From Gemmatimonadota bacterium (GTDB lineage Bacteria > Gemmatimonadota > Gemmatimonadetes > Palauibacterales > Palauibacteraceae): a DNA stretch of 64,000 bases. This document shows positions 7,067-30,582 of the stretch, piece after piece. Location of the stretch: the NCBI GenBank assembly GCA_963666735.1, contig OY762926.1, forward strand, positions 3,616,001 to 3,680,000. The letters are read 5' to 3'. The translations under genes were made by a program, and so were the position numbers. The notes beneath the pieces were generated by a model. It saw nothing but the letters and a program-made list of their open reading frames with translations. It was not told where the DNA came from and did no database searches. Numbering within the stretch: position 1 is the stretch's first letter; every line of letters begins with the position of its first letter.

Positions 7067-7069
7067 TCC

Positions 7070-9334: not shown

Positions 9335-9524
9335 TTCCCCGGCGTCACGAGGCTACAAGCCGAAGTGGATCTCGCCGCGGCCGAGCGATTCGACGCCGAC
9401 CTCCCGTAGACCGCGCTGGATACGCTCTGCGAGCCAATGTGCGCGGTGATACCTGAGAGTCTTGCAGTCTCCATCGGTCAGGTAAACCGTGTTGAGTTGC
9501 TGCGTGATGCAGTGCAGTTGTGAC

Positions 9525-12124: not shown

Positions 12125-15100
12125 TTAGGCGGACTTGAGGTCGTCGGAGACTTCGGCCAGCGCCGTGTCGATGCCGGCCCGTTCCTCGTCCGAGATGTCG
12201 CCGGTGAGTCTGACGGAGACCTCGAAGCCGAGTTCGGCGGAGCCGGCGGCGGCGAGGAGGTTCGGGGCCCTGTCGGCCAGTTCCTGTAGCTGTCCCACAT
12301 CGAGCTTGGCGGCGGCGGGCGGCGGGGGGGGTGTTAGAGGGCTGTCCTGGCGGACCCGTATCTTGAGTTGTGTGGCTTGATCGTACTCGCAGTCGGGGTT
12401 GGCGCTTCCGTCCGCGAGCACGAGCCAATGTGCGTTGATCGCGGCGCGGATTCCCTCGCGCACGAGCCCCCACGGAAGATTCGTCGAGTGTTCCTGCGAG
12501 AGCGCTTGGGCGAGGGTCAGGCCGGTCGTGGCGTCGTCGCGCCAGGCGGCGGCCTGGATGGCTTCGGATCGAAGATCTTGCGGCGTCAACGGGTCCGGTG
12601 GCGGGCGGAGTGTCGCCTTGTCGTTCAGCGCTCCTGCGGGCACTGGCTCCTTCCAGGAGGTAGCGGGGGGATTCGTAAGCCAGACGGTGCCCGACTCCAC
12701 CGCCTGCCCCACAGTTTCCAGCACCGTGTCGGCGGGGCACGCCGGAATCGTGACCATATCGTCGTAGTGGTCGCGGGGGATCTTCGCGACATGCCCGCCC
12801 GCGAAGTAGTTCAGGAGCGTCGCGACCGGCAGGACCGAGCCGGTTTCGCCGCTGTCGTCGTCCGTCCACAGGCTGGGCAGCGTCCCGGGAGCGAGCAGCG
12901 GTTCCGGCAGCCGGGTGAGTTCCGCCTTCTCCGGCAGGACGATCTCCAGCGCCTCGTCACTCGCCGCCTCGGCCTCCACCGGTTCGCGCCACCGCGTGCG
13001 GAAGCTGCCGTCGGGCCGTCTCAGCCGGGCGACGAACAGGCCCTCGCGGACCCCGGCCATTACCGTATCGGTGACGAGCTTTGGCCTCAATACCTTCGGG
13101 AGCCTTGGATGCCGGGCGAAGGCCCCGGCCAACTGGCTCGCGAAACGCGCGTCGTCTCCCTCCTGCCAGAGGTCGTACGGTCCGCCGGGAAGGAGGGCCT
13201 CGGCGTTCACCGGCGTGTCGGTGAGGCGCGTCTTGTCGTGTCCCTTGATCTCCTCAAAAAGCGGCTGTCCGCTGGCGGGGAGCTTGAAGGCGTGAACGCT
13301 GTTCTCCGCGTCCACCGTCACGACGATCCCGTAGGCCTGTCGAATGACGCTCGGCAACTCCGCCTGGGTGTTGGTCTTCTTGCGCCGGAGGCGTTGCGAC
13401 CGCACCGGATCCACCGTTTGGGTCGCGAGCTGCGATTCCACGTCCTCCCAGCCGAGCAGCGCCCGCACTCGGGTGCGCGCCGCATCCAGGCCCTCGCGCG
13501 AAGGCACGGCGATGACCACCGCGTTGCGGTTCACGCGGGGGCGGTTCGGCCCCGTGGTCTCGTCGAGAAACCGCTTCGCGATTCTGCTCGGTTTGCCCGA
13601 CTCCGACGCCGCGTCGGGGCCGAGGATCACGTACCGGAAGCTGCCGTCGTCGGCGACATCTCCGGGCGACTTCGGCAGCACGTGCACGCCTGCCCCGGCG
13701 GCTGCCGCGCCACTCGTAAGGGGCTTCGTCTTGCGGATGAAATCTCCCAGCCGTGTCTCCACCATGTCTGCGGTGACTCGGTCCTTGCAGGCCTGGTCGT
13801 GCATCTGTTTCAGGTTGGGCGCGTTGCCCAGACGCCACGACTTGGGGAGGCCCCGCTCCGCGCCGTAACCGGCCGCGTCGTCCCCGATGTCGGCGTCGTC
13901 GAGGAACCAGGAGGTTTCGCGCCAGCGGAGCAGCCCCTTCTCCAGTTCGATTCTGTCCGGCCCTGAGCCGCCCACGAGCCGGAGCAGCTCAGGCGTTTGC
14001 GCCTTCTGGCCCACCGGCTGCGAGCAGAGAAAGACGGCTGCGACGGCCTGCTCCGCCTCGCGCGCCGGCTGGAGCGCCGCGCACTCACGCTGCACATCCC
14101 GCGCCTTGTCCAGTTCGGCCTCGAGCAGGGGAACCCATTCCGTCTTCTTGCCCTGCACGTCGTCCGTCGAGGCGACGCCCGCGAGTTCCCGCACGGCCTC
14201 GGAGACGTTGGCGGAATCGGGCTCGGCGAGGAGGACGGCGGGACCGACGAGCGGACTCCGGTCCCATGACTCCGCGTCCCGGAGCGCGGTGGCGAGCGTG
14301 CGCAGGATGCCCCGCGTGCGCTGGAAGCTCGCGATCTGCGTCCAGCGACTGTACAGCGCATCCGTCATGTCCGGGTGGAACGGGAAGCTGTGCAGGAACC
14401 GCTCTTCGGCCTCCTTCTTTCCGCGCCGTGTCGTTTCGTCGAGCTTGGCGATGCCCTTCACGATCCCGATCACATGCGGCTTGTATCCCTGCGGATCGCG
14501 GATGCTCTCGGGCTCGAAGAAGCGGCGGCGCAGGACTTCCGCCACATCCTCTCTCTGCACCGGCTGCACGCCCTCCTCGCGCTGCCGGCGAAAGATGTCC
14601 GCGATATCGCGCAGGATCCTTCTGCCCAGGGTATCGGTCGTTCGCGCCGGGTCCGTGGCGAGGATGGACGCGACGATCGCTGCCCGGTCGATCTTCGCCA
14701 CGGCCTGCGTGAGGTACTGGAAGAAGTTCCGCAGGTGCGCCACCCACTCCTCGGCCACGCCCGCCTTGGCATGGGCGTACATCATGACCTCGTCCAGAAG
14801 GATGAGCGTGGCCGTCCCGTCCCGTTGCTGTCGCTCGATCAGCTTGACGAGGAGGGGCTCCGCAGGCGGCGTGTCGCGCTCCTCGTCTTCGTTGTTCGCG
14901 TGCAGCAGGCGGAGACCGTCCGCCCCGGCAAGTTGGAAGGCGAGCACGCTCCAAGGATGCTTGAGCGCGCGCCGCTCTCCGTCGGGGGCGCGCACACCCT
15001 CGATGCCCTTTTCCACATCGATCTTGTCGAAGCAGAGCGCGGCCATCGCGGCGCGGGGAAGGTGGGAGTCCGCGTGCTCGCGGAACTCCCGAACCGCGGC

Positions 15101-15451
15101 GATGTCCGGCAGCCCGCCGGGATCGTGGAACAGGTGATGGAGGGTGATGAGGGTATGCGTCTTGCCGCCGCCGTACGTCATCTCAAGCTGGCGGACGGCC
15201 TTGCTGTTCTGCCCCGCCAGTCGCCCCGCGACGTCCCGCACAAGCTCCCGCAGTGCGTGCGTGGGGTAGGTCAGTGCGAAGAACTTCTCTGGATCCTCGT
15301 AGATGGGCCGCTTCCCCGCCTCCGTGACCACCTCGTGCAGGTCGGCGGCGAACTCGGCGAGCGAGAGCTCCCCGGAACGTAGTTCCGGCTTGAGACGAAC
15401 GATCTCGTGCCAAGGCGCGGGGGTGGGCATGGTGACTATCCGTTGGGACAC
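12125..15451 (-). CDS. DUF499-family AAA+ ATPase (alternative start ATG 15430)
   Basis: PWHEIV, EFAADL, YEDPEKFFALTYPT, Walker A YGGGKTH, Walker B LILLDEV, VLRRRFFE, FPFHP, FQRTRGILR. Confidence 0.88.
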   Translation of the reverse strand: MSQRIVTMPTPAPWHEIVRLKPELRSGELSLAEFAADLHEVVTEAGKRPIYEDPEKFFALTYPTHALRELVRDVAGRLAGQNSKAVRQLEMTYGGGKTHTLITLHHLFHDPGGLPDIAAVREFREHADSHLPRAAMAALCFDKIDVEKGIEGVRAPDGERRALKHPWSVLAFQLAGADGLRLLHANNEDEERDTPPAEPLLVKLIERQQRDGTATLILLDEVMMYAHAKAGVAEEWVAHLRNFFQYLTQAVAKIDRAAIVASILATDPARTTDTLGRRILRDIADIFRRQREEGVQPVQREDVAEVLRRRFFEPESIRDPQGYKPHVIGIVKGIAKLDETTRRGKKEAEERFLHSFPFHPDMTDALYSRWTQIASFQRTRGILRTLATALRDAESWDRSPLVGPAVLLAEPDSANVSEAVRELAGVASTDDVQGKKTEWVPLLEAELDKARDVQRECAALQPAREAEQAVAAVFLCSQPVGQKAQTPELLRLVGGSGPDRIELEKGLLRWRETSWFLDDADIGDDAAGYGAERGLPKSWRLGNAPNLKQMHDQACKDRVTADMVETRLGDFIRKTKPLTSGAAAAGAGVHVLPKSPGDVADDGSFRYVILGPDAASESGKPSRIAKRFLDETTGPNRPRVNRNAVVIAVPSREGLDAARTRVRALLGWEDVESQLATQTVDPVRSQRLRRKKTNTQAELPSVIRQAYGIVVTVDAENSVHAFKLPASGQPLFEEIKGHDKTRLTDTPVNAEALLPGGPYDLWQEGDDARFASQLAGAFARHPRLPKVLRPKLVTDTVMAGVREGLFVARLRRPDGSFRTRWREPVEAEAASDEALEIVLPEKAELTRLPEPLLAPGTLPSLWTDDDSGETGSVLPVATLLNYFAGGHVAKIPRDHYDDMVTIPACPADTVLETVGQAVESGTVWLTNPPATSWKEPVPAGALNDKATLRPPPDPLTPQDLRSEAIQAAAWRDDATTGLTLAQALSQEHSTNLPWGLVREGIRAAINAHWLVLADGSANPDCEYDQATQLKIRVRQDSPLTPPPPPAAAKLDVGQLQELADRAPNLLAAAGSAELGFEVSVRLTGDISDEERAGIDTALAEVSDDLKSA

Positions 15452-15909: not shown

Positions 15910-17321
15910 AGCCCTAGGGATCTGCGAGTCTCGATTCTAAAAAACTCGCGGTAGCCGTCCGGTATCGCGCCATCTTGCGCCACCAAGTTGCCGTTGGCGT
16001 CCCACGCCAGCGAGTGGATCGTCACCGAGAGGTTCCGGCGTTTGAAGTACAGGATCGACACGTCTTCAGGTCTCAGCTTGCTCCGACCATCGCGCACGTC
16101 CATCCGAATGCGATCCATGAGGTGGTCGCTGTGCGTCTCGACGAGGAGTTGGCGTCCTCGAGCGGCCACATCGCAGAACAAGCTGCCGAGTGCGGCTTGT
16201 GCGCTAGGGTGAAGATGGACCTCTGGCTGTTGTAACAAGAACATCTCCGGTCCCTGCGGGCGAAGAAGTTCGGTAACGATGGGGAGCACCTGGCTTACTC
16301 CGTAACCGACGTCGATTATGTTCCGGCGGGGTCCCTTGGCGCGTGTGCCAAACTTCCTGATTTGAATCTGAAAGGGTCCGCCGACCTGCCCACCGAGTGT
16401 CTTGATGGCGATCTCATCGAAAAGGCCTGCCTCCTGCCCGAACGTTTCAAGCGACGACTTGAGGGATTCCCATGTGCGGTCGTTCCGGCGTGCAGCGCTC
16501 GACAGAAACATGGGGATGTGCTCGCCCTCCGCATCTTCAAGCGGATGCGACGGATCGTACGTTCTACGTGGGTGTGAGCGAACAGGCGCGCTCGAAAACG
16601 GTCGTGCGGAGCGCCCCTCGATCGGCGGCTCAAGGCCGAAGAGTTCCTCAATATCCTCCTTGGTCGGTGAGACTCTAGTACCGCTTGACGCGTCGGGTTG
16701 CGCGGATTCCGATACGGTCCTGCCGAGGAAATATCGAACCAAGAATCCGAGAGGAGGTAGCCTGCGTTGCTGGATGTCCGAGAGTGCAGGCGCCAGACCC
16801 CACGATCCGCCTCTGAGGTCTGGACGCTTGAGTTCCCACTTCCCATTACGTGTTGAGAACCGAAGCGAGACGTCCACGCCGTCGCCGGGGATGCAGGCCT
16901 CCACCCACGCGCTCTTGCTTTCGATGCGCCGTACGCTCGGGACGGGAGCGGCACCGTCGCGGCGGAACGTGGCGCGAAACCGGAATGCATGGTTCCGCGC
17001 GGTTGGGATCGGCCTATCTTCATGTTGCCGCGCTCCCCCTTGGTCTTCCCAGGAAAGCTCTGCTCCGAACTCCACCGCACGGCCGCCTCTGCCACCGCGG
17101 TGATGCGCGATCTCATCGAAACTACCGAGATCATACGGCGGCTCTTTGAAGTCGGGAAACCGGTCGTGGAACGCAACGTCCCAGAGGACCTGTAGGAGCG
17201 CGAGGAACGACGTTTTGCCCGTGCTGTTTTCTCCTACTAGGAGCGTGAGCGGTGCAAGACGGGCCGTCTGCTTCCGCCGGAAACACCGGAAATCGGACAA
17301 GCTGAGTTCGTTAATGTGCAT
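15906..17321 (-). CDS. ABC/AAA_21-type ATPase (DUF3696-like C-terminus)
   Basis: LSDFRCF, Walker A GENSTGKT, signature VGYGVSQ, LLQQPEVHLHP, H-loop VETHSDH. Confidence 0.85.
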   Translation of the reverse strand: MHINELSLSDFRCFRRKQTARLAPLTLLVGENSTGKTSFLALLQVLWDVAFHDRFPDFKEPPYDLGSFDEIAHHRGGRGGRAVEFGAELSWEDQGGARQHEDRPIPTARNHAFRFRATFRRDGAAPVPSVRRIESKSAWVEACIPGDGVDVSLRFSTRNGKWELKRPDLRGGSWGLAPALSDIQQRRLPPLGFLVRYFLGRTVSESAQPDASSGTRVSPTKEDIEELFGLEPPIEGRSARPFSSAPVRSHPRRTYDPSHPLEDAEGEHIPMFLSSAARRNDRTWESLKSSLETFGQEAGLFDEIAIKTLGGQVGGPFQIQIRKFGTRAKGPRRNIIDVGYGVSQVLPIVTELLRPQGPEMFLLQQPEVHLHPSAQAALGSLFCDVAARGRQLLVETHSDHLMDRIRMDVRDGRSKLRPEDVSILYFKRRNLSVTIHSLAWDANGNLVAQDGAIPDGYREFFRIETRRSLGL

Positions 17322-17456: not shown

Positions 17457-20400
17457 TCAGAACAGGGATCCCTGTTCTCGTGCCGTTGAAGTCTCCGTAG
17501 GGCCCCCGCCGCGCAGGTGGTTCTGCACCGATTCCAGCAGGGCCCGCTCCTCGGGGCCTCCCTCTGCTAGTTCGATAATGGCCTGCACAACGCTGGCAAA
17601 CAGTTCGTGCTTCCACAGCCCGCGGTCGCTGAGGTAGCTGTTGACGCGGGCTTGCTCCCCAGTTTTCCAGAGTTGCATGACCTTGTGCACACAGTCGATG
17701 AGCGCCGGGGGCGCGCCATCCGGCGTCGGGTGACCCAGCCGGGAGCCGCGCCGTTGGTTCCACCCCTTGAGGCGGACCTCGCTGCCCGATGTCTGCGGTG
17801 CCTCCTCGCCTTCCTCGTCGGACGCAGGAGCCGAGGCCCTCCCACCGCGGACGAGTAGGTTGTGCCTGCTCGCCAGATCGGCATCGGACAGATTGCACGA
17901 GAGCGCGTACAGGATGCACGCGCCGGCGGGGGCTACCTCCAGACCGAAATCGTTCCGGTGCAGCAGGTAGTAGGTCGTGACGTCGTCCAGCTCCGTCGCC
18001 GAACCGTTCCGCTGGGAAAGCAGCTGGCCTACGACGAAACCGACCACCATGCGTCGAACGTGTCGCAGGAAGTCCGCCACGGTCAGAACGTCACCCGGTC
18101 GGTCGGCTCGCTTGACGACGGGATGTCGGCTGAACGCCTCCAAAGCCGGCCCCGTGGCCGACCATACGAAGTCGGGTCCGCGAATCCCCGCATCCCAGAA
18201 GTCGCGCAGCCGCTGAGTGATCTTCTCCCGCATTTCGGTCAGGACCGGGCCCTCCCAGCCTTGCGTGGCGGTCATCGGCCGCTTGCGGCACACAAGCCAA
18301 ATCGATGACGCAAGCGCGGCGGAGGACAGCGCGCGCTGCCGAGTCTGCATTTCGGTCTGGATCGGCCACGAACCCGTCACCACGAACCCTGCCCGGATCA
18401 ACGCCGACACAAGCGTTTCCCACGCATCGGGGCTCTTGTTCGCAAACACGATGACCAGCCGGCCATCGTCGCCAAGAGCCTCGTGGAAGCCACGGAATGC
18501 CCGCGCCATCCCGTCTTCGTAGTTGTTCTTGGAAGCTTCCCGATCTCCCTCGAACCGGCTCGCGTCGTCGATAAGCTCGCCGTCGGAAGCGCCGGACTCC
18601 CACTTTGGACCCAAGGGGTCCGCGAAGGCCGCATCCGTCGCGGATGAGAAACCGTGCAGCACACGACGAAGCCAGACTTGAAAGAAGTCCGTCAAGTCCG
18701 AATACGGGATCGCATCATAGTACGGCGGGTCGGTGCAGATGACGTCGAGCCCGTTCGGCTGGGCGGCGATTGCGCTCCGGGTCTCAACTTCCACGGAGGG
18801 TGCATGCGACCCGGCGGGCAGGGCATGATCGGTCCAGCGTGCGACCCAATCAAGCATGCCCTTGAACCCGCCGGTTGTGGCCGACAGCGGATTCACTTCG
18901 CAATAATCCCACACCATCGGGAGCGCGAACCGTGCGAATGTTTGGCGGAGCTTTTCGCCACTATTGTGCCACGAGCAGATCGCGCTGCTGTAGTCGGTCA
19001 GCTTGCTGAACGCGCACGCCAGATATGCCGTAAACGCCTCCCGCCACTCGACCGGGTAGCCATCCATCTCGGTCGCAACGGCGCGGATCTCGCGCCCGAA
19101 CGTTCCCAGGGCAAGCAGCTGGCGGCGCGTGAACAGTTTGTCCCAAGAGTCGAAGCCATAGCGCGCCACCCGCATGCCGAGGGCCTCCTCGTGCGCAGTC
19201 GGTTCGTTGGGCATGCCGAAAGGGAAGTCCGAGTACAGCGCCTCAAGCTCGCTCTTGCCAATACTCGCGGCTTCGATGTCTTGCTCGGTCGGATGTCGGT
19301 ACTCCTTACCGGTCTGTCCATCCACCACCACGGCCGTCATCCGGGCGCCAAGCCGTCCCGACCGGCCTTGAGCGCGCAACTCGGCCATCCTGGTCACGGC
19401 CGCGCAGTTCGGGCACTCGACCCCGCTCGCGCTCATGGTGCCCGCGCCGAGCACCTGGTCGTGCTGCCGCTGCTGAGCGACCGATCCCGATCCCTTCGGC
19501 ACGTCCGTCGCCACGGCGAACTCGACCCCGCGTCCATCGGCTCGCTTCGTCAGCGTCAAGAGAACCCGCTTCACTGGGGCCGTCTTCTTGCACAGCCAGC
19601 GCGTCTTGAGGAGCGGGATCTCGGCTCGGCAGCCGCCGCACTCGGTCGTGCGCGCCCACAGATAGGCTACGACCGGCTTGGCCACCCAGCGCGGGTTAGC
19701 TTCGTCTTTCAAGTAGGCCTCGTCAAAACCGGCGTTCAGCGCATCGACCGATACACGCCCGTCCGAAGCCGGATCGAGTAGACGGGGCTCTCGCCGCTTG
19801 TATGGCTTGGGTTCCGCCCGCGACGCCCGTGCTCGGCCCCTGCGACGCACGGGCTCGAACTCGGCATAGGCCGGATATCGTGTGGCCAACTGCCGCCTGA
19901 CGCCTTCAAGTACGCGCAGGCTCCACGCCCGGACGTGCCAGGCAAAGTCGGCCTTGGCGTTGGCGTCGTCTCGAAGCAGCGAGGAGGAAAGCTGTACGTC
20001 GCCGCCATCGCGGTGTCCCAGCTCGGCGAGTGCGTTTCGGATCTGGACCTTCGTGCGCGCGCCGCGGGATTTGACGAGCGCGGTGGCGAAGTGCCGGTCG
20101 CGCAGCGCAAACTCGGGCAGCGCCCTCTCCTCCCGTCCCACAAGTTTCGGGTAGTGAAGCGTACAGCGAAGGATGAACCACGCGACCGGATTCAGGTCGG
20201 AAGCGAACGTCTTGCACCCCAGCCGCATCGCCTCCAGCGGAATCGCGCCCCCACCCGCGAAGGGATCCAGCACCCTCGGCGCTCGCCCACCGAACGCCTC
20301 TCGTATCTCCTCCCGCAGACGGTCCAACTCGGGGTCGGTTTCCCGCCCCCAGTGCAGCACCCCACCCGCCGTCTCCTTGAGCTTGGGATCCTCTGCGCCG

Positions 20401-20639
20401 CCTTTGAGCTTCTTGGGCACCAGCCGTCCTGCGATACGCCGCCCCAGTTCGCGCCGACCCTCGTCTTCACCGGGATCGGGCAACAGCGTGGCCAGCAGCA
20501 TCGCCCGGCTCGCCGCCAGCGGCCTCCGCGCCGGCCAGATGTGAAGCGTGGAGATGTGACCGTGCCGCACATTCTTCTCGTGCACCGAATCCAGCGAAAT
20601 CTGCCGTAGCGGCAGCGTCGTCTCGGCTAGGCGTCTCAT
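17457..20639 (-). CDS. DUF1156 adenine-specific DNA methyltransferase
   Basis: LHIWPARRPL, motif I DPFAGGG, CxxC Zn ribbons, motif IV TDPPY; ATG 20639 overlaps upstream stop (TGATG). Confidence 0.9.
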   Translation of the reverse strand: MRRLAETTLPLRQISLDSVHEKNVRHGHISTLHIWPARRPLAASRAMLLATLLPDPGEDEGRRELGRRIAGRLVPKKLKGGAEDPKLKETAGGVLHWGRETDPELDRLREEIREAFGGRAPRVLDPFAGGGAIPLEAMRLGCKTFASDLNPVAWFILRCTLHYPKLVGREERALPEFALRDRHFATALVKSRGARTKVQIRNALAELGHRDGGDVQLSSSLLRDDANAKADFAWHVRAWSLRVLEGVRRQLATRYPAYAEFEPVRRRGRARASRAEPKPYKRREPRLLDPASDGRVSVDALNAGFDEAYLKDEANPRWVAKPVVAYLWARTTECGGCRAEIPLLKTRWLCKKTAPVKRVLLTLTKRADGRGVEFAVATDVPKGSGSVAQQRQHDQVLGAGTMSASGVECPNCAAVTRMAELRAQGRSGRLGARMTAVVVDGQTGKEYRHPTEQDIEAASIGKSELEALYSDFPFGMPNEPTAHEEALGMRVARYGFDSWDKLFTRRQLLALGTFGREIRAVATEMDGYPVEWREAFTAYLACAFSKLTDYSSAICSWHNSGEKLRQTFARFALPMVWDYCEVNPLSATTGGFKGMLDWVARWTDHALPAGSHAPSVEVETRSAIAAQPNGLDVICTDPPYYDAIPYSDLTDFFQVWLRRVLHGFSSATDAAFADPLGPKWESGASDGELIDDASRFEGDREASKNNYEDGMARAFRGFHEALGDDGRLVIVFANKSPDAWETLVSALIRAGFVVTGSWPIQTEMQTRQRALSSAALASSIWLVCRKRPMTATQGWEGPVLTEMREKITQRLRDFWDAGIRGPDFVWSATGPALEAFSRHPVVKRADRPGDVLTVADFLRHVRRMVVGFVVGQLLSQRNGSATELDDVTTYYLLHRNDFGLEVAPAGACILYALSCNLSDADLASRHNLLVRGGRASAPASDEEGEEAPQTSGSEVRLKGWNQRRGSRLGHPTPDGAPPALIDCVHKVMQLWKTGEQARVNSYLSDRGLWKHELFASVVQAIIELAEGGPEERALLESVQNHLRGGGPTETSTAREQGSLF

Positions 20640-21799
20640 CACGAGGCCTTTTGGTAGGTTGATTCGGCGTCGCTGGTCCAGCCTCGAACGGTATCCGCCG
20701 CCTCCTGCGGAGCGGCGACGATGTCTATCTCCTCTACAACTTTTTCTCCGTGACCGTACCCGCTCGCCACCCCTCGCCGCTCCACCCGCGTCCGCCGGCT
20801 CAGGATGCGCTTCGTTGGCCACGCCTCACGGATCGCTTGCTCGCACGTTTCGGCCGTACGCTCCTTCGCTCCGCAGCGGACCAGAACGACTCCGTCCTCT
20901 CGCAGATGCCTCTTGGCCCTTTGGAACACCGTTGTCATGAGCGAACGGTATTCCCGCAGGTTCGTGTGTTTCTGCGTGCGCCGCCAATTCTTCCGCAGCG
21001 GTTCGCCCAGAATCCAAAGACGTATCCAATGGTCGTTCCAATAATCCGTCACGTCATGGTACGGAGGCGAGGTGATCAACAGCTTCGCGCGACATGGCCC
21101 GAGCTGCGCGAGTTTGCGGCGTGCATCACCGAGGAACGGTTTGGACGGCGCCATCGCGGGGAGGCCGAAAGCGTATCTTCGTGCAATTCGATCCGTCAGG
21201 AACGCGACCGGGTCGGTCGCGGGCGGCGTCATTAGCCCTCGCGCGGTCCACCAGCGCACGGCATAGGACGCCGAGTGCGCGACGGTCGGCGAGAAACGGT
21301 TCGACAGCCCCTTCGGATAACTGTCCTGCATGTGCAGGGCCACGAACGCCATCAGCGTCCGGTCCACGCGGGAGCTTCGCCAGTCGAGCTCACGCCGGGC
21401 GGCCTTGAGGAATCCTCGGACGTCAGGTGCCCAAGCCATGGTCTCAAAACGGCTTCGGGATCGGCGGTCGACCGGGCGGACAGCTCTTCCGATCGCCCGG
21501 ACACGCGCCAATACGCGCTTGGGCTGCTGAGCCGGCAACAACTTCGCCGCCGTGAAGAGCCACGCCACCGGCTGAATATCCACCGCGACTGCGGGCCTGC
21601 CGAGGGCCGCCGCCACGAAGGGGGCGTTCCCGCGGCCCGAAAACGGGTCCAGAACCATGTCTCCTGGCGCGGTGAAGGTCGTGACCGCCCGGGTCACGAA
21701 GGGTGCCGGGAACATCGCATAGTATCTGCCCAAGCCGTACCAACGGTGCTCCGCCGTGTTCGCAGGCCATGGAAGGCGGGAGATGCCGTAGGTCTTCAT
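20639..21799 (-). CDS. Amino-DNA methyltransferase (SPPY, likely m4C)
   Basis: YYAMFP, motif I LDPFSGRG, motif IV LITSPPY. Confidence 0.85.
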   Translation of the reverse strand: MKTYGISRLPWPANTAEHRWYGLGRYYAMFPAPFVTRAVTTFTAPGDMVLDPFSGRGNAPFVAAALGRPAVAVDIQPVAWLFTAAKLLPAQQPKRVLARVRAIGRAVRPVDRRSRSRFETMAWAPDVRGFLKAARRELDWRSSRVDRTLMAFVALHMQDSYPKGLSNRFSPTVAHSASYAVRWWTARGLMTPPATDPVAFLTDRIARRYAFGLPAMAPSKPFLGDARRKLAQLGPCRAKLLITSPPYHDVTDYWNDHWIRLWILGEPLRKNWRRTQKHTNLREYRSLMTTVFQRAKRHLREDGVVLVRCGAKERTAETCEQAIREAWPTKRILSRRTRVERRGVASGYGHGEKVVEEIDIVAAPQEAADTVRGWTSDAESTYQKAS

Positions 21800-23094
21800 G
21801 ATATGCCGGCAAGGCTCTCGATGATGGCCGCGCCGGCCGCGAACGGAATCGCCGCCTTGGCGTGCGCGCGCCGAAGCGGGAGGAATTCGTGGCGGCCCAC
21901 GCCCAGCCGCGCGGCCGTGGCAATCGCTTCATCGCAAACCCTGGGTCTCGCCGCGTTGGTCAGCGGTCGGTCCGCCTCGGGTTGTGCCAGATTGAGTAGA
22001 AGCCTCTGTCCCTCGCTCGTCTTTACGACCAGCGGGCGACCGAAATACGTGATCTCACCCCAGGGTTGATCCGTGTCTCGAGCGATGATGTTCTCCCGGA
22101 TGTAGTCGTCGTCGGGAAGCCACGCGGTTCCCAAGGGAATGCGAGAGTCCGGCGCCGGAGCCTCGTCAAGCTCGGAGAAGTGCTGAACGAAGGCTCCCGT
22201 CTTGATGGCGGACATGACCAGGAGCCTCCCCGGCGACAGTCGCTCATCGATCCGCCGCAGTTCTCGAAGTACCCCCGGCTGGAGTGCCGCGATCGTGCTG
22301 AAAGCCGCCAGCGGCCCGTCGAGGACAAACGCGATCCGACGCAGCGCCCGTCGCCCGTTCTCGATCTTCACCAGTTCCCGCAGCAGGTTCATCAACGTCA
22401 GGATCTCAAGTGCTTCGCGAACTCGGCCGTGAGCGTCACCGCACGGCTGCTCATCGCTGAAGATTTCATGCGCTCGGAGCGCGTCCGACAACAACACGCT
22501 GGCACCGCATTCTTCGCAGTTGGATTCCATCGCCCCCTCGGGCGGAGTCAGGGGGCGTGAATGGCACCGCCGGTTGGGACACCGAATCGGTCGGGGATCT
22601 TCGAGCAGAGCATGAAGCGTGGCGGCCAGATTCTCTCCGCCGTAGTGCCCCTCTTCCAACGTCGTTTGCACTTCCTGTCGAAACCAATCCCGAGACGATT
22701 CTCCGTCCACCGACCTCGCGTTGCGTCCGGGGAGGGCCAACTGCAGCGTGCTGGCTTGCTCTGTTTCCCGGAGCTGCACGGGATCCGTTGCACCACTCGC
22801 AGGCAGTCGAGGCAAGGACTCCAAGCGCTCGACATCAATCCGGACAACCGCGATCGAAATCAGCCCGGCTTCGGTGCACGGAAGCCGCGCCGGAATCCGG
22901 TGGTAGATGCTCGAGCCGTCGAGAGCGACGACGATTGGGCGCGGCTCTCCATCCCGAAATGACGCGAACGGCGGTAGTGGCTTTGGCGGGACGTTCACAC
23001 CGCGCTGGAGCCGAGCGCCGAACGCGTCGATGATGCGCCGTCGTTCGAGGTCCTCCAACGCCGAGAATCCGGCGCGCTCATTCGGGTAGGGCAT
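21796..23094 (-). CDS. NurA-like nuclease with Zn-ribbon insert
   Basis: VVALDGS, FVLDGPL, IKTG, C-terminal PLRRAH; CPNRRC...CEEC insert; directly downstream of HerA. Confidence 0.72.
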   Translation of the reverse strand: MPYPNERAGFSALEDLERRRIIDAFGARLQRGVNVPPKPLPPFASFRDGEPRPIVVALDGSSIYHRIPARLPCTEAGLISIAVVRIDVERLESLPRLPASGATDPVQLRETEQASTLQLALPGRNARSVDGESSRDWFRQEVQTTLEEGHYGGENLAATLHALLEDPRPIRCPNRRCHSRPLTPPEGAMESNCEECGASVLLSDALRAHEIFSDEQPCGDAHGRVREALEILTLMNLLRELVKIENGRRALRRIAFVLDGPLAAFSTIAALQPGVLRELRRIDERLSPGRLLVMSAIKTGAFVQHFSELDEAPAPDSRIPLGTAWLPDDDYIRENIIARDTDQPWGEITYFGRPLVVKTSEGQRLLLNLAQPEADRPLTNAARPRVCDEAIATAARLGVGRHEFLPLRRAHAKAAIPFAAGAAIIESLAGIS

Positions 23095-23099
23095 TCGCG

Positions 23100-25232
23100 C
23101 TACTCCGCCTCGGTTGTGTCGGGTGGATCCGGCAAGCGAAACCGATCAAGCTGGACCGGCACCGTGTATCCGGCAGAGAGCGTTCGCAGCCTGATGAAGC
23201 CGGGTTGGGAGACTTGCCGAATCTGCGGCACGAAATCGGCAAAATCCTGATAGCCCTCGACGACCCTGGCTTCACCGTCGGAATTGAGATGGGAGATGAA
23301 CCAGTTGTCGGTCTCGCTCAGAATCTCGGGCAGCACGGAACTCGGCGCCTGCGTGGCCAAGACCATCCCGAGGTTCATCTTTCCTCCCTCCTTGGCGGCC
23401 CGCGCCCACACCGTGGAAAGCACGTCCTTGCCGCCGGTACGCGGTAGCAGGTTGTGCGCCTCCTCGACGTACACGAGGACGTGACCCTCCCACGGCTCGG
23501 CGTTCGCGTGCGATGTGAACATCGCCTGCTGCTCCCTGAACACCTTCCACATGATCCGCTCCGCCGCCCGCCGGTTGAGTTCGGGGCTTCCGATCGACTG
23601 ATCGAAGATCACGAGTTTCCCGGCCTTGAGGTCCTTCACGATGTCCTCCGCGAAATCCGAGCCCGCTTCCACCGAATGCTGATCTCGCAGGCGTTGCAGC
23701 TTTCGAACTCCGTTCGGTGTGCGGAAGATGCTCAGAACGGACTTGAGCCGCGCATCCGCCCAGTCCTCTCCGCTCCCGCTCGGACGCTGTCGGTACTGCC
23801 GCTCAAAGGCTTCGTAGGCATCGTCGCCTCGATTGATGAAGGAATCGAGCGATTGGAATGCGCTGGCGAGACTGGACCATGAGGCGCTATCCCTCGCAAG
23901 TGTGTCGGCGGCTTGCTCGAACCTGCCCCCTGCGGAGCGAAGCGCGGCGCAAAAATCTCGACTGAACAGTCGCCTAAGATCTGCGGTCGGCCTGGGAGTG
24001 CTAAACCCGGCGGCCGCCAGCGCGACGCGGTGCACCAGCACGGAGCGATGATAGCGGACGGCGGGGCCGCGGTCGGCGTAGTTCGGCGGGACGGACAGGT
24101 CGGCGTCGCGGTAATTCCGCACATACTGCGCATCCTCAGACCCCAACTCCTCCTCGATGATGGTTCTGCCGACGAGGAGCTGCTCCAGCGCTGTCTCTGT
24201 TGCCTCCCGGTTGGGCGGGTCGTTGGGCGGAATTGGGTTGCCGAAGAAGTTGACCTTCGTGATGCGGCGCTCGGTGTCGGTTTCGGGAACGTACATGCCG
24301 TACGTCTCGATCTCGCCGCTCCGCTCGCGACCGAGAAGGTCGTGGATGCGGTGCAGTCCCCGTCCGTCCTGCGGATTGTCTTGCGCGTACTCGCCGTTCG
24401 GATCGAAAACGAGCTGGCCAACACGGAGCTTTTCGTGCTTTCCGCGCAGCATGTAAACGGCCTGCGCAGTGATCTTCATGGCGTTCGACTTCCCCGACCG
24501 GGACATCCCGAGGAACACCGTACGACGCTTGAGGAGGTCGGTCGGGTCGATCCGCACCAGCACTTGAGCCGATCGCTCGGCGGCCGAGTCGAGAGCGGAG
24601 GAAAAGCGTGTAAGGGCTATGCGTATCCGACGGTCCGAGTGGAGCGACGAATCAAGCTCCGAGAAGTCGAGGTTGTTGCTTCGATGCGAGAGGTTGACGA
24701 TGCGCTCCAGCAGCTCTCCCTCGGGCTTCCAAGCATACGCGCCATGAGCGGAATAGTAGTTGGAGATGTCCTCCGCGAACTGCAGTTCTTCGGCTGCGCG
24801 AATCGTGAGCGTACCGAGAACCCGAGCTTCGATACCTCCGAGCGCTATCTCATCGGCGATCCATTTTGTGAGGCTCTCCGTCCAAAGCTCACGCCCGATC
24901 GAGTCGCGGGCGGCGGTCAACCGAGCCTCCTGAGTCGTCGGGTGGTTGGCGAGCCGCTTCGCTCCAACGACCCGCATCAAGACCATCGCGGCATCATCTT
25001 TCGCGGAAGTCTTGCCCGCGATCAGGAACATCCCGCGCGCGAGGCCTCCGGCACGCTCCTTGTGGTAGTCGTGGACAGCCAAGGTCGCCGTGTTGTAGTC
25101 CAACAACAGCACCTGACCGACGGCTGCGCCGGGCGTGAGGTCTTGGAGCAGTCGGATGTCCCCGTGTTCGGCGGCGAGCTCCCCGACCACATCCTCCCCC
25201 GGCGCCGGTCCGCCTGATTCGTTATCGGGCAT
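23100..25232 (-). CDS. HerA/FtsK-superfamily ATPase (DUF87)
   Basis: HAS-barrel-like N-terminus, Walker A GMSRSGKS, VFDPNGEY, Walker B VYVEEAHN, LATQAPS. Confidence 0.85.
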   Translation of the reverse strand: MPDNESGGPAPGEDVVGELAAEHGDIRLLQDLTPGAAVGQVLLLDYNTATLAVHDYHKERAGGLARGMFLIAGKTSAKDDAAMVLMRVVGAKRLANHPTTQEARLTAARDSIGRELWTESLTKWIADEIALGGIEARVLGTLTIRAAEELQFAEDISNYYSAHGAYAWKPEGELLERIVNLSHRSNNLDFSELDSSLHSDRRIRIALTRFSSALDSAAERSAQVLVRIDPTDLLKRRTVFLGMSRSGKSNAMKITAQAVYMLRGKHEKLRVGQLVFDPNGEYAQDNPQDGRGLHRIHDLLGRERSGEIETYGMYVPETDTERRITKVNFFGNPIPPNDPPNREATETALEQLLVGRTIIEEELGSEDAQYVRNYRDADLSVPPNYADRGPAVRYHRSVLVHRVALAAAGFSTPRPTADLRRLFSRDFCAALRSAGGRFEQAADTLARDSASWSSLASAFQSLDSFINRGDDAYEAFERQYRQRPSGSGEDWADARLKSVLSIFRTPNGVRKLQRLRDQHSVEAGSDFAEDIVKDLKAGKLVIFDQSIGSPELNRRAAERIMWKVFREQQAMFTSHANAEPWEGHVLVYVEEAHNLLPRTGGKDVLSTVWARAAKEGGKMNLGMVLATQAPSSVLPEILSETDNWFISHLNSDGEARVVEGYQDFADFVPQIRQVSQPGFIRLRTLSAGYTVPVQLDRFRLPDPPDTTEAE

Positions 25233-25346
25233 AAAAGCTTGTCCTCCCCGTCGTTGCTGGTGTTGTTGATATGCTCCCGGAAGGTGCCCCGCCCAAGCTT
25301 CCGAGCCGTTGGAGACTAATCGAGTTTCCGGGAACGCGTTCTTCAG

Positions 25347-26447
25347 TCACGCGGCGTGCGCCTCGATGTGTGAGCGGATCGTATCGCCGATGGCGGTCGC
25401 CAAGCCAACCGGAACGGCGTTGCCGACGTGGCGTCCGACGCGGGCGAACCGAACGGGGTCGCCGGGGGCGGTGAACTGGTAGCTCCGGGGGAAGCTCTGG
25501 AGCAGCGCCGCCTCACGAAGGGAGATCGCGCGGTCCTGAACGGGATGGCCGAAGCGCCCCCGCCCAAACGAGAAACACCCCGTCGTCAGGGTCGGAGCGG
25601 GTTTGTCCCACTCCATCCGGCCGTACACGTTCTTGTAGCTCGCGCCGCCGCGCCGACGATGGCACGGAGAAACGAGATCCGGGTCATCCCATTCGGACCA
25701 CGGCCTCCCGGGCTTGGCCGCGCGGATGCGCCGGAGGTTCAGCAGCGAAAGTCGAGACGCGCAGTGTAGTTGATCGTGGGGACACACCTCACCCGCGTCG
25801 AGCGCGGGCAGGTGACCTATGGCGTGCCGAACCGTGCGGCGTGGACCGGGGGACGGAGCGGGAACGGCGATGGGGCCGAGCCTCGAGGCCAGCACGACAA
25901 GTCGGCTGCGGTCCTGCGGTACGCCGTAGTCCGCAGCGTTGACGACCTTGTCAGCCGCTTGGTAGCCCGCCCGCCCGAGCCGCTCAAGGAAGCGGTCGAA
26001 TACCCTTCGCCCTTGGAACGACTTGAGTCGGGGGACGTTCTCCATCGAAACGATCTCGGGCTCGAGCGCTACGACCCGATCCATGAAGAGATCCACGAGC
26101 GACCACTTGTCGCGGGGCTGACCAGAGCCCGCGCTGTAGGGAGAAAACGGCGTACAAGGCGCGCAGCCCACGAGGATGCGCCGGCAGCCCTTGGGGAACA
26201 TCGCACCTATCTCTGCGACCGACACTTCCTCCAGCCGTCGGCCCACGAAGGCCGCATCGTTGTTCGCCTCGAACGCGTACCGGCACTTCTCGTCGGCGTC
26301 GACGCCCGCCACGACGTTGAACCCCGAGCGACGGAGCCCGTGGCTCAGTCCTCCGATCCCGCAAAAGAGATCGATCACCGCCCAGCCGGGGATACCTTCG
26401 ACGGTGGCACCTACCTCATCCGCCTCCGGCCGCTCCCGATCCGGCAT
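25347..26447 (-). CDS. DNA (cytosine-5)-methyltransferase
   Basis: DLFCGIGG, GCAPC, MENV, YGVPQDRSR, YGRMEW, GNAVP. Confidence 0.93.
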   Translation of the reverse strand: MPDRERPEADEVGATVEGIPGWAVIDLFCGIGGLSHGLRRSGFNVVAGVDADEKCRYAFEANNDAAFVGRRLEEVSVAEIGAMFPKGCRRILVGCAPCTPFSPYSAGSGQPRDKWSLVDLFMDRVVALEPEIVSMENVPRLKSFQGRRVFDRFLERLGRAGYQAADKVVNAADYGVPQDRSRLVVLASRLGPIAVPAPSPGPRRTVRHAIGHLPALDAGEVCPHDQLHCASRLSLLNLRRIRAAKPGRPWSEWDDPDLVSPCHRRRGGASYKNVYGRMEWDKPAPTLTTGCFSFGRGRFGHPVQDRAISLREAALLQSFPRSYQFTAPGDPVRFARVGRHVGNAVPVGLATAIGDTIRSHIEAHAA

Positions 26448-26695
26448 CAATCGGTCCGCTTTACGGGCGTGTCCGCGAGGTTCATGCTCGTGATCCTGTC
26501 TCCCACTCACTGCCATAGCTGGTCGATGTCCGCACAGACCTCCGCCAGTCGCCAACGCCAATCGTCGAAAAATGAAGCATCGTATCTTGCCCTATCATCT
26601 TCCGTCATGTGTTGTTCTCCATCCACGGTAGCGACTTTCCAGTGCCGAGAGATCCGGGCGACCCCCGTGTTGGTTACGTCCGTCCAATTCTCAAA

Positions 26696-26905
26696 CTAGG
26701 CCGGCGGGTGTGATCGCCGGACGGCGGCGGCGCGCTCCGGGGCGTGGTCACGGGCTCGGATCCGCACAGCCAAGACGTTCTCATCGGACGGCTCGCCATC
26801 CGGGATCCTTCCAGGGTTTGCCTCCACGGTGCTCCTCCAGGGAGTTGCGTGTGAGAGCGCCGCTTTTCCCGCACCGTTCGGGCCCACGATGATGATGATT
26901 CTCAT
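26696..26905 (-). pseudogene. Truncated P-loop kinase/zeta-toxin-like remnant
   Basis: MRIIIIVGPNGAGK then loss of recognisable sequence; ATGA-coupled to the helicase stop. Confidence 0.5.
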
Positions 26906-29900
26906 GCGGAGACCTCTGCCGCTCTCATCACTTCGCCGACGGCAATGCTCCAGCGGCTCGTGATCGTTGCGACCAGGCGGTTGAAGGGGTCTTGGATGCA
27001 TACAAGCTGCGGGTTGGGTGTCGCGCAGTCGTAGACCACGTACAGCCAGAACTCGTCGCCGAGGTGGCAGGCCGCCCTCCACTCGTTGTCCTCCATGCGG
27101 ATCTCGGCTCGGCCGGCGCGGCCCTTGACCTCGATGTGCCGCTTGCTGCCGTCGGGCCGGGTCGCGAGCAGGTCGAAGCCGGGGTAGTCGCCGAGGCCCG
27201 CCGTCCGCGCCCCGCTCGGTCGCGAGACATCCACCACCGTCGCCCCTTGTGCGCGCTCCCACTCTGAGGCGATGCGCATGGCCGTCTCCTCCACGTGCGC
27301 GTCAAAAGCCTCGACCTCCTCGCCGCCGCGGGGCGGGAGGGTGATCGCCAGCGCGCGGAAGCGAGGCTCCGCGGGAACGATGCGCCGCGCCGCCGCCTCC
27401 AGTTCCTCGACGGCGGCCAAGCGCTCCAGACGGAGGTTGGCCTGGTCCCGCTTCACTGCCTCCAGCTCTTCCGGGTCTGCGTCGGGGTCGCGCGACAGCG
27501 CCGAGCGACGACTGGCGGCCTCCGCCGCTCGCAGGTTGAGGTTCAGGGTGATCCGTGCCCGGCGTTCGGGAATCGCATCCCGAACCAACTCCCGTCGAGC
27601 CTCGGCCACGCGCTGCGCCTCCTCATGCAGATGCACGTTGGTTGCCGCGCGCAGCGTGACGGCCTTGTTCGCGAGGGGGACCGTGCCGGGGGGCACATGC
27701 CGGGCCTCTTGGAGAAACGAGAGGTATTCAAGGGGCAACGGCGCGATCCGACCGTCCTCCCCTTGTCGGAGACAGACAAGGCGCTTCTCGAGCGTGCGGT
27801 CCGCGGGGGCGCTGGGGGCGGTCTCGTCCTCCGCCTCCTCCAGCACAGCCAATTCGCCCAGGTGGACAAGGTAGGGTTCCTCGGCCCGCGGATCGATGAA
27901 GATCGCGCCCCGCTGGGCGTCTCTCTCGCACGTCGCAAGGACGCGAGCACACAGGGCGTCGAACACGGGTTCGCCGGGGTGGAGCCAGATGCAGGGCTCG
28001 TCGCCCTCCGGACGCCTCACGCGCAGCCGATCTCTGGCCTCGGGCGGATAGGCTTCCAGCGCGGGAAGCAGCGGATCCAATGCGCTCCCGCGGGCCGGAA
28101 CGAATGCAAACACATCGTTCAGGTCTCCGTGAAGGTTGAGTCCCAGCAGCGGCGCCGACAGTTCCACGAACCGCAACACCCATGCGGGAAGCAGATGCAG
28201 GTAGCGCTCGCTCTCGATCTCGCCGCGCAGGGTGTCCAGGCGGCGGGCCACATCGCCGCCTGGACCGTAGTGGCGCGCGTCGTGCTCTCCGATCTCGCGT
28301 ACCGCATCGCTTCCGAGTTGGGACATTCGATCGCGCGCTCGCCGCTCGCCCTGGTCGGTCAGGGTGTCCTGCATGTATTCGAGCAGCGACCGGTTCTCGA
28401 ACAGCCGCCCGATCACGTCGAACACCTTGTCCGATTGCAGCTCACGGCGGATCGCGTCCAGTCTCTCCAGCAGCACCTTGAGGACACGTCCCTCTCGCGT
28501 GTCGGTGGACACGAGGTTGAAGATGCGGACGTCGTGCTCCTGTCCGTAGCGGTGAATGCGACCCATGCGCTGTTCGAGCCGGGCAGGGTTCCACGGGACG
28601 TCGTAGTTCACCATCAGCCGGCAGAACTGGAGGTTGATACCCTCCCCGGCGGCGTCGGTCGCGACCAGGAAGCGAGCACCGGAGGGATCGCGAAAGCGCT
28701 CCACGGCCTCCTCGCGTTCGGGCCAAGCCATGCCGCCGTGGATCGTGGCCACCCGCCCCGCGTGCCCCAGCGCCTCCAGCCGCCTGACGAGGTAATCGGC
28801 GGTGTCGCGGTGCTCGCTGAACACGAGCCACTTCTTCTCCGTGTGCTCGGGGCTCTCCAGCAGCTCGCGGAGCCGCTCGAACTTCGACTCCCGGCCCGAG
28901 TCTATGAGATGGTGCGCGCGGTCCCTGAGATCGCGCAGCGTCTCGATTTCCTCCCGCAACTCCTCGACCGTGACCGCGACGACCGCCCCGAGCACCGCAT
29001 CCTCGTAGTCCTCGTTGCCTTCTCGCCGCCGGTCGTCGTTCTGATCGTCGGCCGAGTCGAATTCCTCGAAGAAATCCGCCCGGAATTTCCCGTCGAGGCG
29101 CGTCTGGCGGCGGCCGAGAGCGGCCGCGTCGATGCGCCCGGCTTCAAGATCGGCGACCAACGCCTCGACCTTCCGGATACGGCGCTCCAGCGACGTGAAC
29201 AGCGCCCACGTCGAACTGGCCAGCCGTCGCTGGAACACGCCCATGGCGAGCTTGACCGCCTGCCGGTTCTCCATCGCCCGGCCGTACGAGCGGCGGAGAT
29301 ACTCCGTGGTGCGGTCGTACAGCGCCCGCTCGCCGTCCGGTCCCTCCGTGAGGTCGTAACCGAACGTGTCGCAGCGGCGGTCGCGGAAGATTGGCTGGCC
29401 GTCGAAACCCAGCATCTCCTCCTTGGTGCGGCGAATGAAGTGGCGCGAGCGATCGTCGGGCGGGAAGCGCCGCCACGCCTCCTCCGTTCCGAACACCCGG
29501 TGATCCAGCAGCCGCCACAGGTGATGGTACGGAGAATCCTTGCCCATGTGGGGCGTGGCCGTCAGGAGCAGGAGATGATGCGCCGACCACTTGAGGGACG
29601 ACCAGTCGGGCTCCGTCGAGCCGCCTCGGTGTCCGTTCCCCCGCGGGGTGCGCACCCGGCCCGGCGTACCGGACGAACACCCCGCCAGCGCCTCGGCAAG
29701 CTTGTAGCGTTGGGTCTTGCGGGTTCTCGCGCCTTCGCTCGTGGCGCTCAGCTTGTGCGCCTCGTCAAAGACCACGAGGTCGTAGGGTGCCGTCCCCGGA
29801 TCGGCCAACCTCGAAAAGGCTGTGTTACCGCGCAGCGTGTCCAGCGAAACGATGACCCGGTCGCTCCCGGAGCCGGCGAACGGATTACCCGCCCGCGCAT

Positions 29901-30582
29901 CTGGGCCCGACACGATGCGGAAGTCGAGCCGGAACAGGGTCCGGAGTTCCCGCTCCCAGTTGCCCACGAGCCCGGCCGGCGGGACGACGAGCACCCGCCG
30001 GATCCGCCCTCGCATGAGCATCTCGCGAACGTAGAGCCCGGTCATGATCGTCTTGCCCGCGCCCGCGTCGTCCGCGAGCAGGAAGCGGAGCGGCTCCCGC
30101 GTGAGCATGTGCTCGTAGACCGCGATCCGCTGGTGGGGCAGGGGATGGATCCGCGAGATTTCGCTCGCGAACGCCGGATTGAACTGATAGCCGTGCGTCA
30201 GCCGGAGGCCTTCCACAAAGAGGGAGAGCCGGTCCGGGTCACCGTTGAAGTCGAGGAACGGAAGGTCGCGAGCGCCTTGAGCTCCGCCCTGAAGCGTGTC
30301 CGCTCCGTCAAGGTGTCGCGGGCGCTGCCGAGCCGTGTCCAGGGCGTGTTCCTCCTCCAGTTCGCCAAGCCGCCGCAACGCCAGCTTTCGGGGACTAGAC
30401 TGGCCCGTCTCCCACCGATGGACCGTGATGACCGAAACGCCGAGCCGCTCAGCAAAGCTCTCTTGGGTTAGCTTCAACCCGCGGCGAAGGCGACGAACGC
30501 GGGCCGGGATGCCTCCGTCGGCCTGGGCGGAAATCGCCGGGCTTACTGGGTTCGAAGGCGGCGAGTCGAGATGTGATGGCAT
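26902..30582 (-). CDS. XRE HTH + SNF2-type helicase + DUF3883-like nuclease fusion
   Basis: LTQESFAERLGVSVITVHRWETG; LLADDAGAGKT, DEAH, LTATP, GEGINLQ, QRMGRIHR; C-terminal GFDL..IEVKGR..NEW. Confidence 0.9.
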   Translation of the reverse strand: MPSHLDSPPSNPVSPAISAQADGGIPARVRRLRRGLKLTQESFAERLGVSVITVHRWETGQSSPRKLALRRLGELEEEHALDTARQRPRHLDGADTLQGGAQGARDLPFLDFNGDPDRLSLFVEGLRLTHGYQFNPAFASEISRIHPLPHQRIAVYEHMLTREPLRFLLADDAGAGKTIMTGLYVREMLMRGRIRRVLVVPPAGLVGNWERELRTLFRLDFRIVSGPDARAGNPFAGSGSDRVIVSLDTLRGNTAFSRLADPGTAPYDLVVFDEAHKLSATSEGARTRKTQRYKLAEALAGCSSGTPGRVRTPRGNGHRGGSTEPDWSSLKWSAHHLLLLTATPHMGKDSPYHHLWRLLDHRVFGTEEAWRRFPPDDRSRHFIRRTKEEMLGFDGQPIFRDRRCDTFGYDLTEGPDGERALYDRTTEYLRRSYGRAMENRQAVKLAMGVFQRRLASSTWALFTSLERRIRKVEALVADLEAGRIDAAALGRRQTRLDGKFRADFFEEFDSADDQNDDRRREGNEDYEDAVLGAVVAVTVEELREEIETLRDLRDRAHHLIDSGRESKFERLRELLESPEHTEKKWLVFSEHRDTADYLVRRLEALGHAGRVATIHGGMAWPEREEAVERFRDPSGARFLVATDAAGEGINLQFCRLMVNYDVPWNPARLEQRMGRIHRYGQEHDVRIFNLVSTDTREGRVLKVLLERLDAIRRELQSDKVFDVIGRLFENRSLLEYMQDTLTDQGERRARDRMSQLGSDAVREIGEHDARHYGPGGDVARRLDTLRGEIESERYLHLLPAWVLRFVELSAPLLGLNLHGDLNDVFAFVPARGSALDPLLPALEAYPPEARDRLRVRRPEGDEPCIWLHPGEPVFDALCARVLATCERDAQRGAIFIDPRAEEPYLVHLGELAVLEEAEDETAPSAPADRTLEKRLVCLRQGEDGRIAPLPLEYLSFLQEARHVPPGTVPLANKAVTLRAATNVHLHEEAQRVAEARRELVRDAIPERRARITLNLNLRAAEAASRRSALSRDPDADPEELEAVKRDQANLRLERLAAVEELEAAARRIVPAEPRFRALAITLPPRGGEEVEAFDAHVEETAMRIASEWERAQGATVVDVSRPSGARTAGLGDYPGFDLLATRPDGSKRHIEVKGRAGRAEIRMEDNEWRAACHLGDEFWLYVVYDCATPNPQLVCIQDPFNRLVATITSRWSIAVGEVMRAAEVSA

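Follow-up and report, generated by a model that had tools for sequence, protein, structure and literature searches.

In a 64,000-nucleotide stretch of a Gemmatimonadota genome (contig OY762926.1, positions 3,616,001 to 3,680,000; hereafter, the window), three adjacent genes encode a HerA-type ATPase, a NurA-fold nuclease, and a DNA methyltransferase (MTase), and we consider it probable that this trio is a self-contained, mobile, TdpAB-related cassette acting as a likely methylation-gated restriction system. The cassette is real and widespread; its function is read from sequence. What the analysis shows is how the genes are ordered, which folds they encode, that the catalytic residues are intact, that the three are inherited together while the MTase class is exchanged, that the neighborhood is rich in defense genes, and that the cassette is inserted into a slot of a host locus termed Hma. 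The three genes are as follows.

23100..25232, minus strand: HerA/FtsK-family ATPase, TdpA-related, 710 amino acids (PF01935, PDB alignments)
21796..23094, minus strand: NurA-fold nuclease, TdpB-related, 432 amino acids, with a four-cysteine insert (PF09376)
20639..21799, minus strand: amino-type DNA methyltransferase, 386 amino acids (PF01555, motif order)

All three open reading frames (ORFs), proposed in an initial annotation made from the letters alone, are intact on the minus strand, and the tight junctions described there are present: 5 bp separate the HerA stop from the NurA ATG, the nuclease and MTase genes overlap by ATGA, and the MTase gene overlaps the DUF1156 gene that follows by TGATG. 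Pfam matches place the HerA-like product in PF01935 (29.8 bits; cutoff, 23.2), the nuclease, barely above the threshold, in PF09376 (NurA; 21.9 bits; cutoff, 21), and the MTase in PF01555 (52.5 bits; cutoff, 26.7). One public contig (run X2) backs the assembly from 20223 to 27500 with zero differences, and the trio is single copy in its host genome. Its G+C fraction, 0.638, is lower than that of the hma genes (0.66 to 0.68) and of the window from 36 to 64 kb (0.70). A promoter/terminator scan and a repeat search at the trio returned nothing above chance, and the repeat search, made around the trio itself, showed no flanking att-like or long repeat.

The initial annotation derived the motor and nuclease from the HerA-NurA repair machine; the nearest relatives are instead TdpA and TdpB, a characterized modification-dependent anti-phage pair. 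TdpA is the best PDB match of HerA (114.5 bits, versus at most 58.3 for others), the relation being distant. The NCBIfam cutoffs for repair HerA are far from reached (36.3 versus 970 and 29.2 versus 800 bits), as are those for SIR2-HerA (51.5 versus 800 bits) and DUF4297-HerA (23.9 versus 850 bits). For the nuclease, the Pfam match and structural comparison together indicate a TdpB-type NurA fold with an acidic active site, the conserved residues being D59, E230, D259, K298, and H411; an MPYxGE N terminus is shared with TdpB, and structural scores against the archaeal and Deinococcus HerA-NurA structures fall below those against TdpB. A PDB search with the nuclease as a single sequence gave no significant match, and the nuclease matched no model of PADLOC 2023 (5 tested) or NCBIfam 2026 (3 tested). 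The cysteine insert noted at the outset is present as C172-x4-C177 ... C193-x2-C196, in a region where TdpB is shorter by about 70 residues, judging from alignment lengths. At least four insert cysteines were counted by script in 53 of 89 nucleases and, in cases of a failed anchor motif, by eye in a further 12; the remaining 24 have one or two, with a methyltransferase beside every one of them; the zinc ribbon is therefore common in the family and does not define it.

The ATPase carries a GMSRSGKS Walker A motif (residues 242 to 249), with an unusual Arg245, and a YVEEAH Walker B motif. At its arginine-finger site, residues 614 to 618, stands the KEGGK that had been singled out, with Gly617 in place of Arg and Lys618 retained; five solved HerA-type chains whose alignments cover the site have KEGRK there, where the initial annotation gave REGRK as typical of the family. 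In DUF4297-HerA, R455 and K456 act in trans on ATP (PMC11291478), and counting along the PDB 8xau alignment maps them to G617 and K618 of the present protein. All 90 relatives have A, S, or G at position 617, a residue outside every search pattern, and all 90 retain K618. A P-loop of the form G-x-x-R-x-G-K-S occurs in 89 of 90; the motif had seeded some of the scans, but it also occurs in all 17 sequences recovered via the nuclease instead. In GBP GTPases, an arginine placed identically in the P-loop (R48, three residues before K51) serves as a built-in finger (PMC11846989), and we therefore infer that Arg245 may replace the lost arginine finger in cis. Family-wide loss of one arginine and gain of the other amount to a clean biochemical prediction.

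How constant is the partnership with the MTase? Across genome, metagenome, and viral loci the linkage holds, as the initial annotation supposed. Complete trios occupy 15 of 17 genome loci; of the other two, L010 runs off its contig and L017 is interrupted by an IS4/5 gene. Within the phylum, 6 of 301 genomes carry the cassette, with none among 23 of the same family; of those six carriers, two have the order MTase-HerA-NurA (24% nuclease identity) and one copy is decayed. When 401 genomes were sampled from the phylum of G303, the center genome was the sole carrier. The best 80 of at least 572 metagenome HerA matches comprise 64 codirectional trios, 1 locus with the MTase adjacent on the other strand, and 15 that are cut off; several metagenome loci are duplicates, and grouping at 90% HerA identity leaves 76 of the 83 complete loci pooled over all sources. 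Viewed from the MTase, whose family holds at least 1429 clusters, NurA is adjacent in 6 of 7 loci above 440 bits (two of the six also belong to the loci above; the seventh lies on a phage contig) and in 0 of 46 below 300 bits (mostly with 1.5-kb flanks). A protein of the cultured Synechococcus sp. PCC 7336 is among the matches to the family. The divergence of the three genes is correlated (Spearman 0.88 to 0.93), and such co-inheritance is by itself no proof of functional coupling.

Some copies are broken. HerA is split by an IS200/IS605 element in Deferribacter (L022:4733-11206), several fragments are found in G125, an insertion sequence interrupts L017, HerA is frameshifted in L003 and L016, and L036 belongs on the same list; the methyltransferase remains whole in L022, L003, and L016.

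In the MTase, motif I (DPFSGRG, residues 51 to 57) precedes motif IV (SPPY, residues 244 to 247), which is the alpha-class order and is shared, together with SPPY, by 76 of 76 SPPY-type enzymes. SPPY, which we take to be an N4-cytosine signature, suggests that the cassette enzyme makes N4-methylcytosine. A different class serves the viral loci: 9 of 11 have a D12-class methyltransferase immediately upstream of HerA, and the other two loci are each truncated on one side by the end of the contig. Five of the nine are Dam-like (L040, one of two tested with L043, exceeds the TIGR00571 cutoff), and four best match PD-lambda-5B; further scans for D12-type loci added none. On a midpoint-rooted FastTree of HerA, D12-type loci fall on three branches interleaved with SPPY-type loci, and our claim, which extends to neither direction nor count, is that the methyltransferase class appears to have been exchanged within the HerA-NurA family. 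With TdpC included, four marking enzymes seem to accompany one motor-nuclease lineage. It is this exchange that argues most strongly for a mark of importance to the machine; a phosphorothioate/cytosine-methylase swap has been proposed for Dnd/CxC systems (PMC10853773).

Three other observations concern the MTase family. A close relative (584 bits) lies on a phage contig without HerA-NurA (L161:4965-6092) and could provide phage counterdefense by self-marking. At L050:4024-6060, the cassette MTase is inverted and in frame with an N-terminal DUF6088/AbiEi-antitoxin-like domain. Lastly, a sister clade of SPPY-type enzymes (242 to 284 bits) closes another three-gene operon (L129:3862-7134, L162:2805-6101, L193, L194, L196, L197, and L207), in which a PD-lambda-5A/PDC-M38A-like gene (shown for L129 and L162) and a Pfam-less protein of about 330 amino acids precede the MTase; conserved FPR, KDD..D, and Q.A.G..W..K motifs in the Pfam-less protein are suggestive of a PD-(D/E)xK nuclease, and the operon is possibly another unnamed restriction-like system.

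The neighborhood of the cassette is enriched in defense genes, as expected of a defense island. Among 100 scanned neighbors, mostly the nearest on each side and drawn from 218 listed, 33 match PADLOC models (E 1e-10), versus 3 of 81 ORFs in 20 evenly spaced stretches of the cassette's own genome (Fisher p 4e-7, with loci that are not independent, a control of one genome, and a few matches that are probably housekeeping look-alikes such as PolA, UvrD, and HIT). The matches include type II, IIG, III, and IV restriction genes, Gabija, Tiamat, Kiwa, Shosta, Ppl, HEC-01, and others. Flanks are variable and defense-rich, with no constant integrase, restriction, or conjugation gene beside the cassette.

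In the window, the trio sits within an Hma locus, in the order hmaA, dcm, trio, hmaB, ABC-ATPase and PIN genes, hmaC. The host genes are as follows.

26902..30582, minus strand: HmaA SNF2 helicase with an N-terminal helix-turn-helix (HTH) and a C-terminal NOV_C domain (563 bits), outside the cassette
25347..26561, minus strand: C5-cytosine methyltransferase (Dcm), start uncertain, host locus
17457..20639, minus strand: HmaB/DUF1156 adenine methyltransferase (373 bits), host locus
15436-17321, between hmaB and hmaC: ABC-type ATPase and weak PIN-domain gene, HEC-03/Menshen-like
12125..15451, minus strand: HmaC/DUF499 ATPase (236 bits), host locus

In three same-genus genomes with a close HmaC (75 to 96%), this locus occupies an identical chromosomal position, reads hmaA-dcm-GHKL ATPase-hmaB, and in each case lacks the trio; the match to the window is interrupted between about 20640 and 25340. 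The GHKL protein of G716 matches a type II restriction model at 308 bits, so the trio took a restriction gene's place. Conversely, HmaB, HmaC, and Dcm are absent from all 17 related genome loci of the trio, which is independent cargo in the Hma slot, and Hma loci are known as cargo hotspots (10.1101/2024.01.29.577857). A partnership with DUF1156 or Dcm is rejected on the same counts, and the TGATG overlap is an insertion boundary and not a sign of partnership. The C5 methyltransferase, left without the GHKL restriction gene of the relatives, may now be an orphan. The interval between hmaB and hmaC is a second cargo slot, holding the same pair in G716 and an HNH protein in G713 and standing empty in G715. 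The island extends beyond hmaC (6296-12076) with a NYN-domain gene, a NACHT/pentapeptide STAND protein, a DDE transposase, and a 287-amino-acid Pfam-less ORF; at 34365-35729, a transposase-like ORF lies inside a region that is continuous in the relatives.

How might such a machine work? We posit that the methyltransferase would mark a frequent short site across the host genome, presumably as N4-methylcytosine. A hexameric HerA ring with a NurA dimer, a complex and stoichiometry taken over from the HerA-NurA and TdpAB structures, would load on unmarked incoming DNA, probably at ends, as T. kodakarensis HerA-NurA suggests, and would then pump the DNA and degrade both strands. Marked DNA would stall or exclude the complex by blocking loading or progress, and the mark would thereby gate cleavage. 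More tentatively, as a generalization that we hold to be possible rather than probable, restriction-modification may have a widespread form built on a single HerA-ring/NurA machine that is gated by interchangeable self-marks (phosphorothioate in Tdp; N4-methylcytosine and Dam-type or PD-lambda-5B-type N6-methyladenine in the trio family), reads the mark during translocation without a classical recognition domain, and is driven by an ATPase with the arginine finger moved into its own P-loop. The trio, if it is gated by methylation, would extend the recently found Tdp systems by a methylation-based branch and represent a restriction mechanism unlike types I to IV, with a processive ring motor-nuclease under base-mark control. 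Are bacterial HerA-NurA pairs immune machines? How does a translocase sense DNA modification?

Several observations weigh against methylation gating. A ring that grips the backbone has no evident means of sensing a base methyl group, and the zinc ribbon, which 24 of 89 nucleases lack, was rejected as a universal mark reader. The canonical trans arginine finger (R455 of DUF4297-HerA) is lost in 90 of 90 relatives, and therefore ATPase activity is not assured. Identity between the nuclease and TdpB is 13 to 15%. The 80 metagenome loci kept lean to the query's clade, and 9 to 12 supported splits conflict among the three gene trees. Word avoidance as a route to the target site was rejected: when 76 cassettes of the SPPY type and 9 of the D12 type were put to a codon-shuffle test, no 4- or 5-mer was depleted beyond the flanks, a few low-count 6-mers aside (GATC, 0.93 versus 1.00; GGCC, 0.84 versus 0.85). 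In three of five plasmid matches, all from Nostocales (L018, L020, and L021), HTH-HerA-NurA stands without a methyltransferase beside it. Solitary methyltransferases of the Nostocales host may provide the methylation on which these plasmids rely. In a comparable operon of the Thermus element ICETh1, loss of the methylase has minor effects on transfer, so it is dispensable there (PMC5365140, PMC7767461).

What else could the cassette be? The best placed of the rival explanations, unlikely in our estimate, takes HerA-NurA for an anti-invader nuclease that recognizes its target by DNA form (free ends) or is triggered by infection, its MTase not gating cleavage and acting in regulation, as a decoy or sensor of phage anti-methylase proteins, or as a shield from other restriction enzymes. 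T. kodakarensis HerA-NurA can start at any end and degrade both strands, and NurA leaves circular double-stranded DNA uncut (PMC12977600), so a circular chromosome would need no mark; the cyanobacterial plasmid loci do without a methyltransferase, one motor family with three methyltransferase types strains a sequence-specific reader, and PD-lambda-5 is described as a compact system of restriction-modification plus abortive infection (PMC9519451). Set against this are the near-absolute MTase linkage, the repeated replacement by other methyltransferases, and the modification dependence of TdpAB. A slimmer chance goes to a DNA export or donation module that spreads itself and host genes, like TdtA-NurA of ICETh1, where tdtA and nurA are required for transjugation and the published operon has the same three Pfam-level parts at similar sizes (NurA-like, 377 amino acids; PF01555 methylase, 410 amino acids) (PMC5365140). 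The wide horizontal spread of the cassette fits such a module; the variable flanks without a constant mobility gene, the lack of att-like repeats here, the replaced restriction gene, and the different ICETh1 gene order with its type IIG enzyme do not, and donation and defense need not exclude each other. Very improbable, and largely refuted, is an ordinary end-resection repair pair beside an unrelated methyltransferase: the NurA fold and Pfam match would suit it, but the cassette is missing from same-family genomes, HerA falls far below the repair cutoff, the methyltransferase linkage is not chance, and the host genome has two large PD-(D/E)XK proteins encoded side by side, typical of AddAB (by inference), with no SbcD above the cutoff. 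Mre11/Rad50-like motifs were found in 0 of 91 loci (with crude motifs and no positive control) and none among annotated plasmid neighbors; the absence of mre11/rad50 from the window, as first stated, holds for the 15 window proteins scanned by Pfam. Least credible of all is an accessory part of the surrounding BREX-related Hma/DUF499 system, as suggested by the trio's place between hmaA and hmaB with its final stop overlapping the hmaB start, given the reciprocal absences and the hotspot character of Hma loci described above.

We return to the proposed methylation-gated cassette and ask how new it is. No named PADLOC or NCBIfam model covers the trio, in line with the initial annotation's view of it as undescribed, and a literature search, supplements being outside its scope, found no published name for a HerA-NurA-methyltransferase defense system; earlier HerA-NurA/TdpAB work may mention such loci. 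The word NurA is absent from the main texts of 10.1101/2024.01.29.577857, PMC12839542, and PMC10853773. Its newness is otherwise qualified, as TdpAB is already characterized and a nurA-tdtA-N4/N6-methylase operon is published for ICETh1 (PMC5365140). That element (tth111II-nurA-tdtA-TTC1880, Thermus thermophilus HB27), likened here by description only, has the same cotranscribed parts, a NurA-like nuclease, a HerA/FtsK ATPase, and a PF01555 methylase, on a mobile element; it differs in its nurA-tdtA-methylase order, added type IIG enzyme, and integrase, and it was studied as DNA donation (PMC5365140, PMC7767461). The archaeal and Deinococcus HerA-NurA pairs (PDB 2ygk, 9x1m, and 7f6d) share the fold, the active-site residues, and a probable ring-plus-dimer (PMC12977600, PMC13748450), whereas the trio family shows a patchy mobile distribution, a fixed methyltransferase partner, and no observed mre11/rad50 link. 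SIR2-HerA and DUF4297-HerA likewise join a HerA motor to an effector in defense islands (PMC11291478), with another effector in place of the NurA fold, no methyltransferase, and an intact arginine finger (R455/K456). The Hma/DUF499 system is the host locus, and the trio is cargo in its hotspot (10.1101/2024.01.29.577857, PMC12839542). PD-lambda-5 (PMC9519451) draws on the same methyltransferase pool, in that four HerA-NurA loci use a PD-lambda-5B-like enzyme and the SPPY-enzyme sister sits behind a PD-lambda-5A-like gene, but it has neither HerA nor NurA. Closest is TdpABC (PDB 8wet, 8wfd, and 8y1k), a phosphorothioate system in which TdpAB is modification dependent (PMC12914056, PMC13223576) and which, like the trio, combines a HerA-type ATPase, a NurA-fold nuclease, and a single modifying enzyme. 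The trio lacks TdpC, its third gene being a PF01555 amino-methyltransferase with SPPY and its flanks Dcm and HmaB; its proteins are larger (710/432 versus 586/375 amino acids for TdpA/TdpB), it alone has the four-cysteine insert, and its family reads KEG[AGS]K and GMxRxGKS where TdpA keeps KEGRK and GKTGFGKS. The trio is thus not a TdpABC member, and by analogy, on present evidence, it would work like one.

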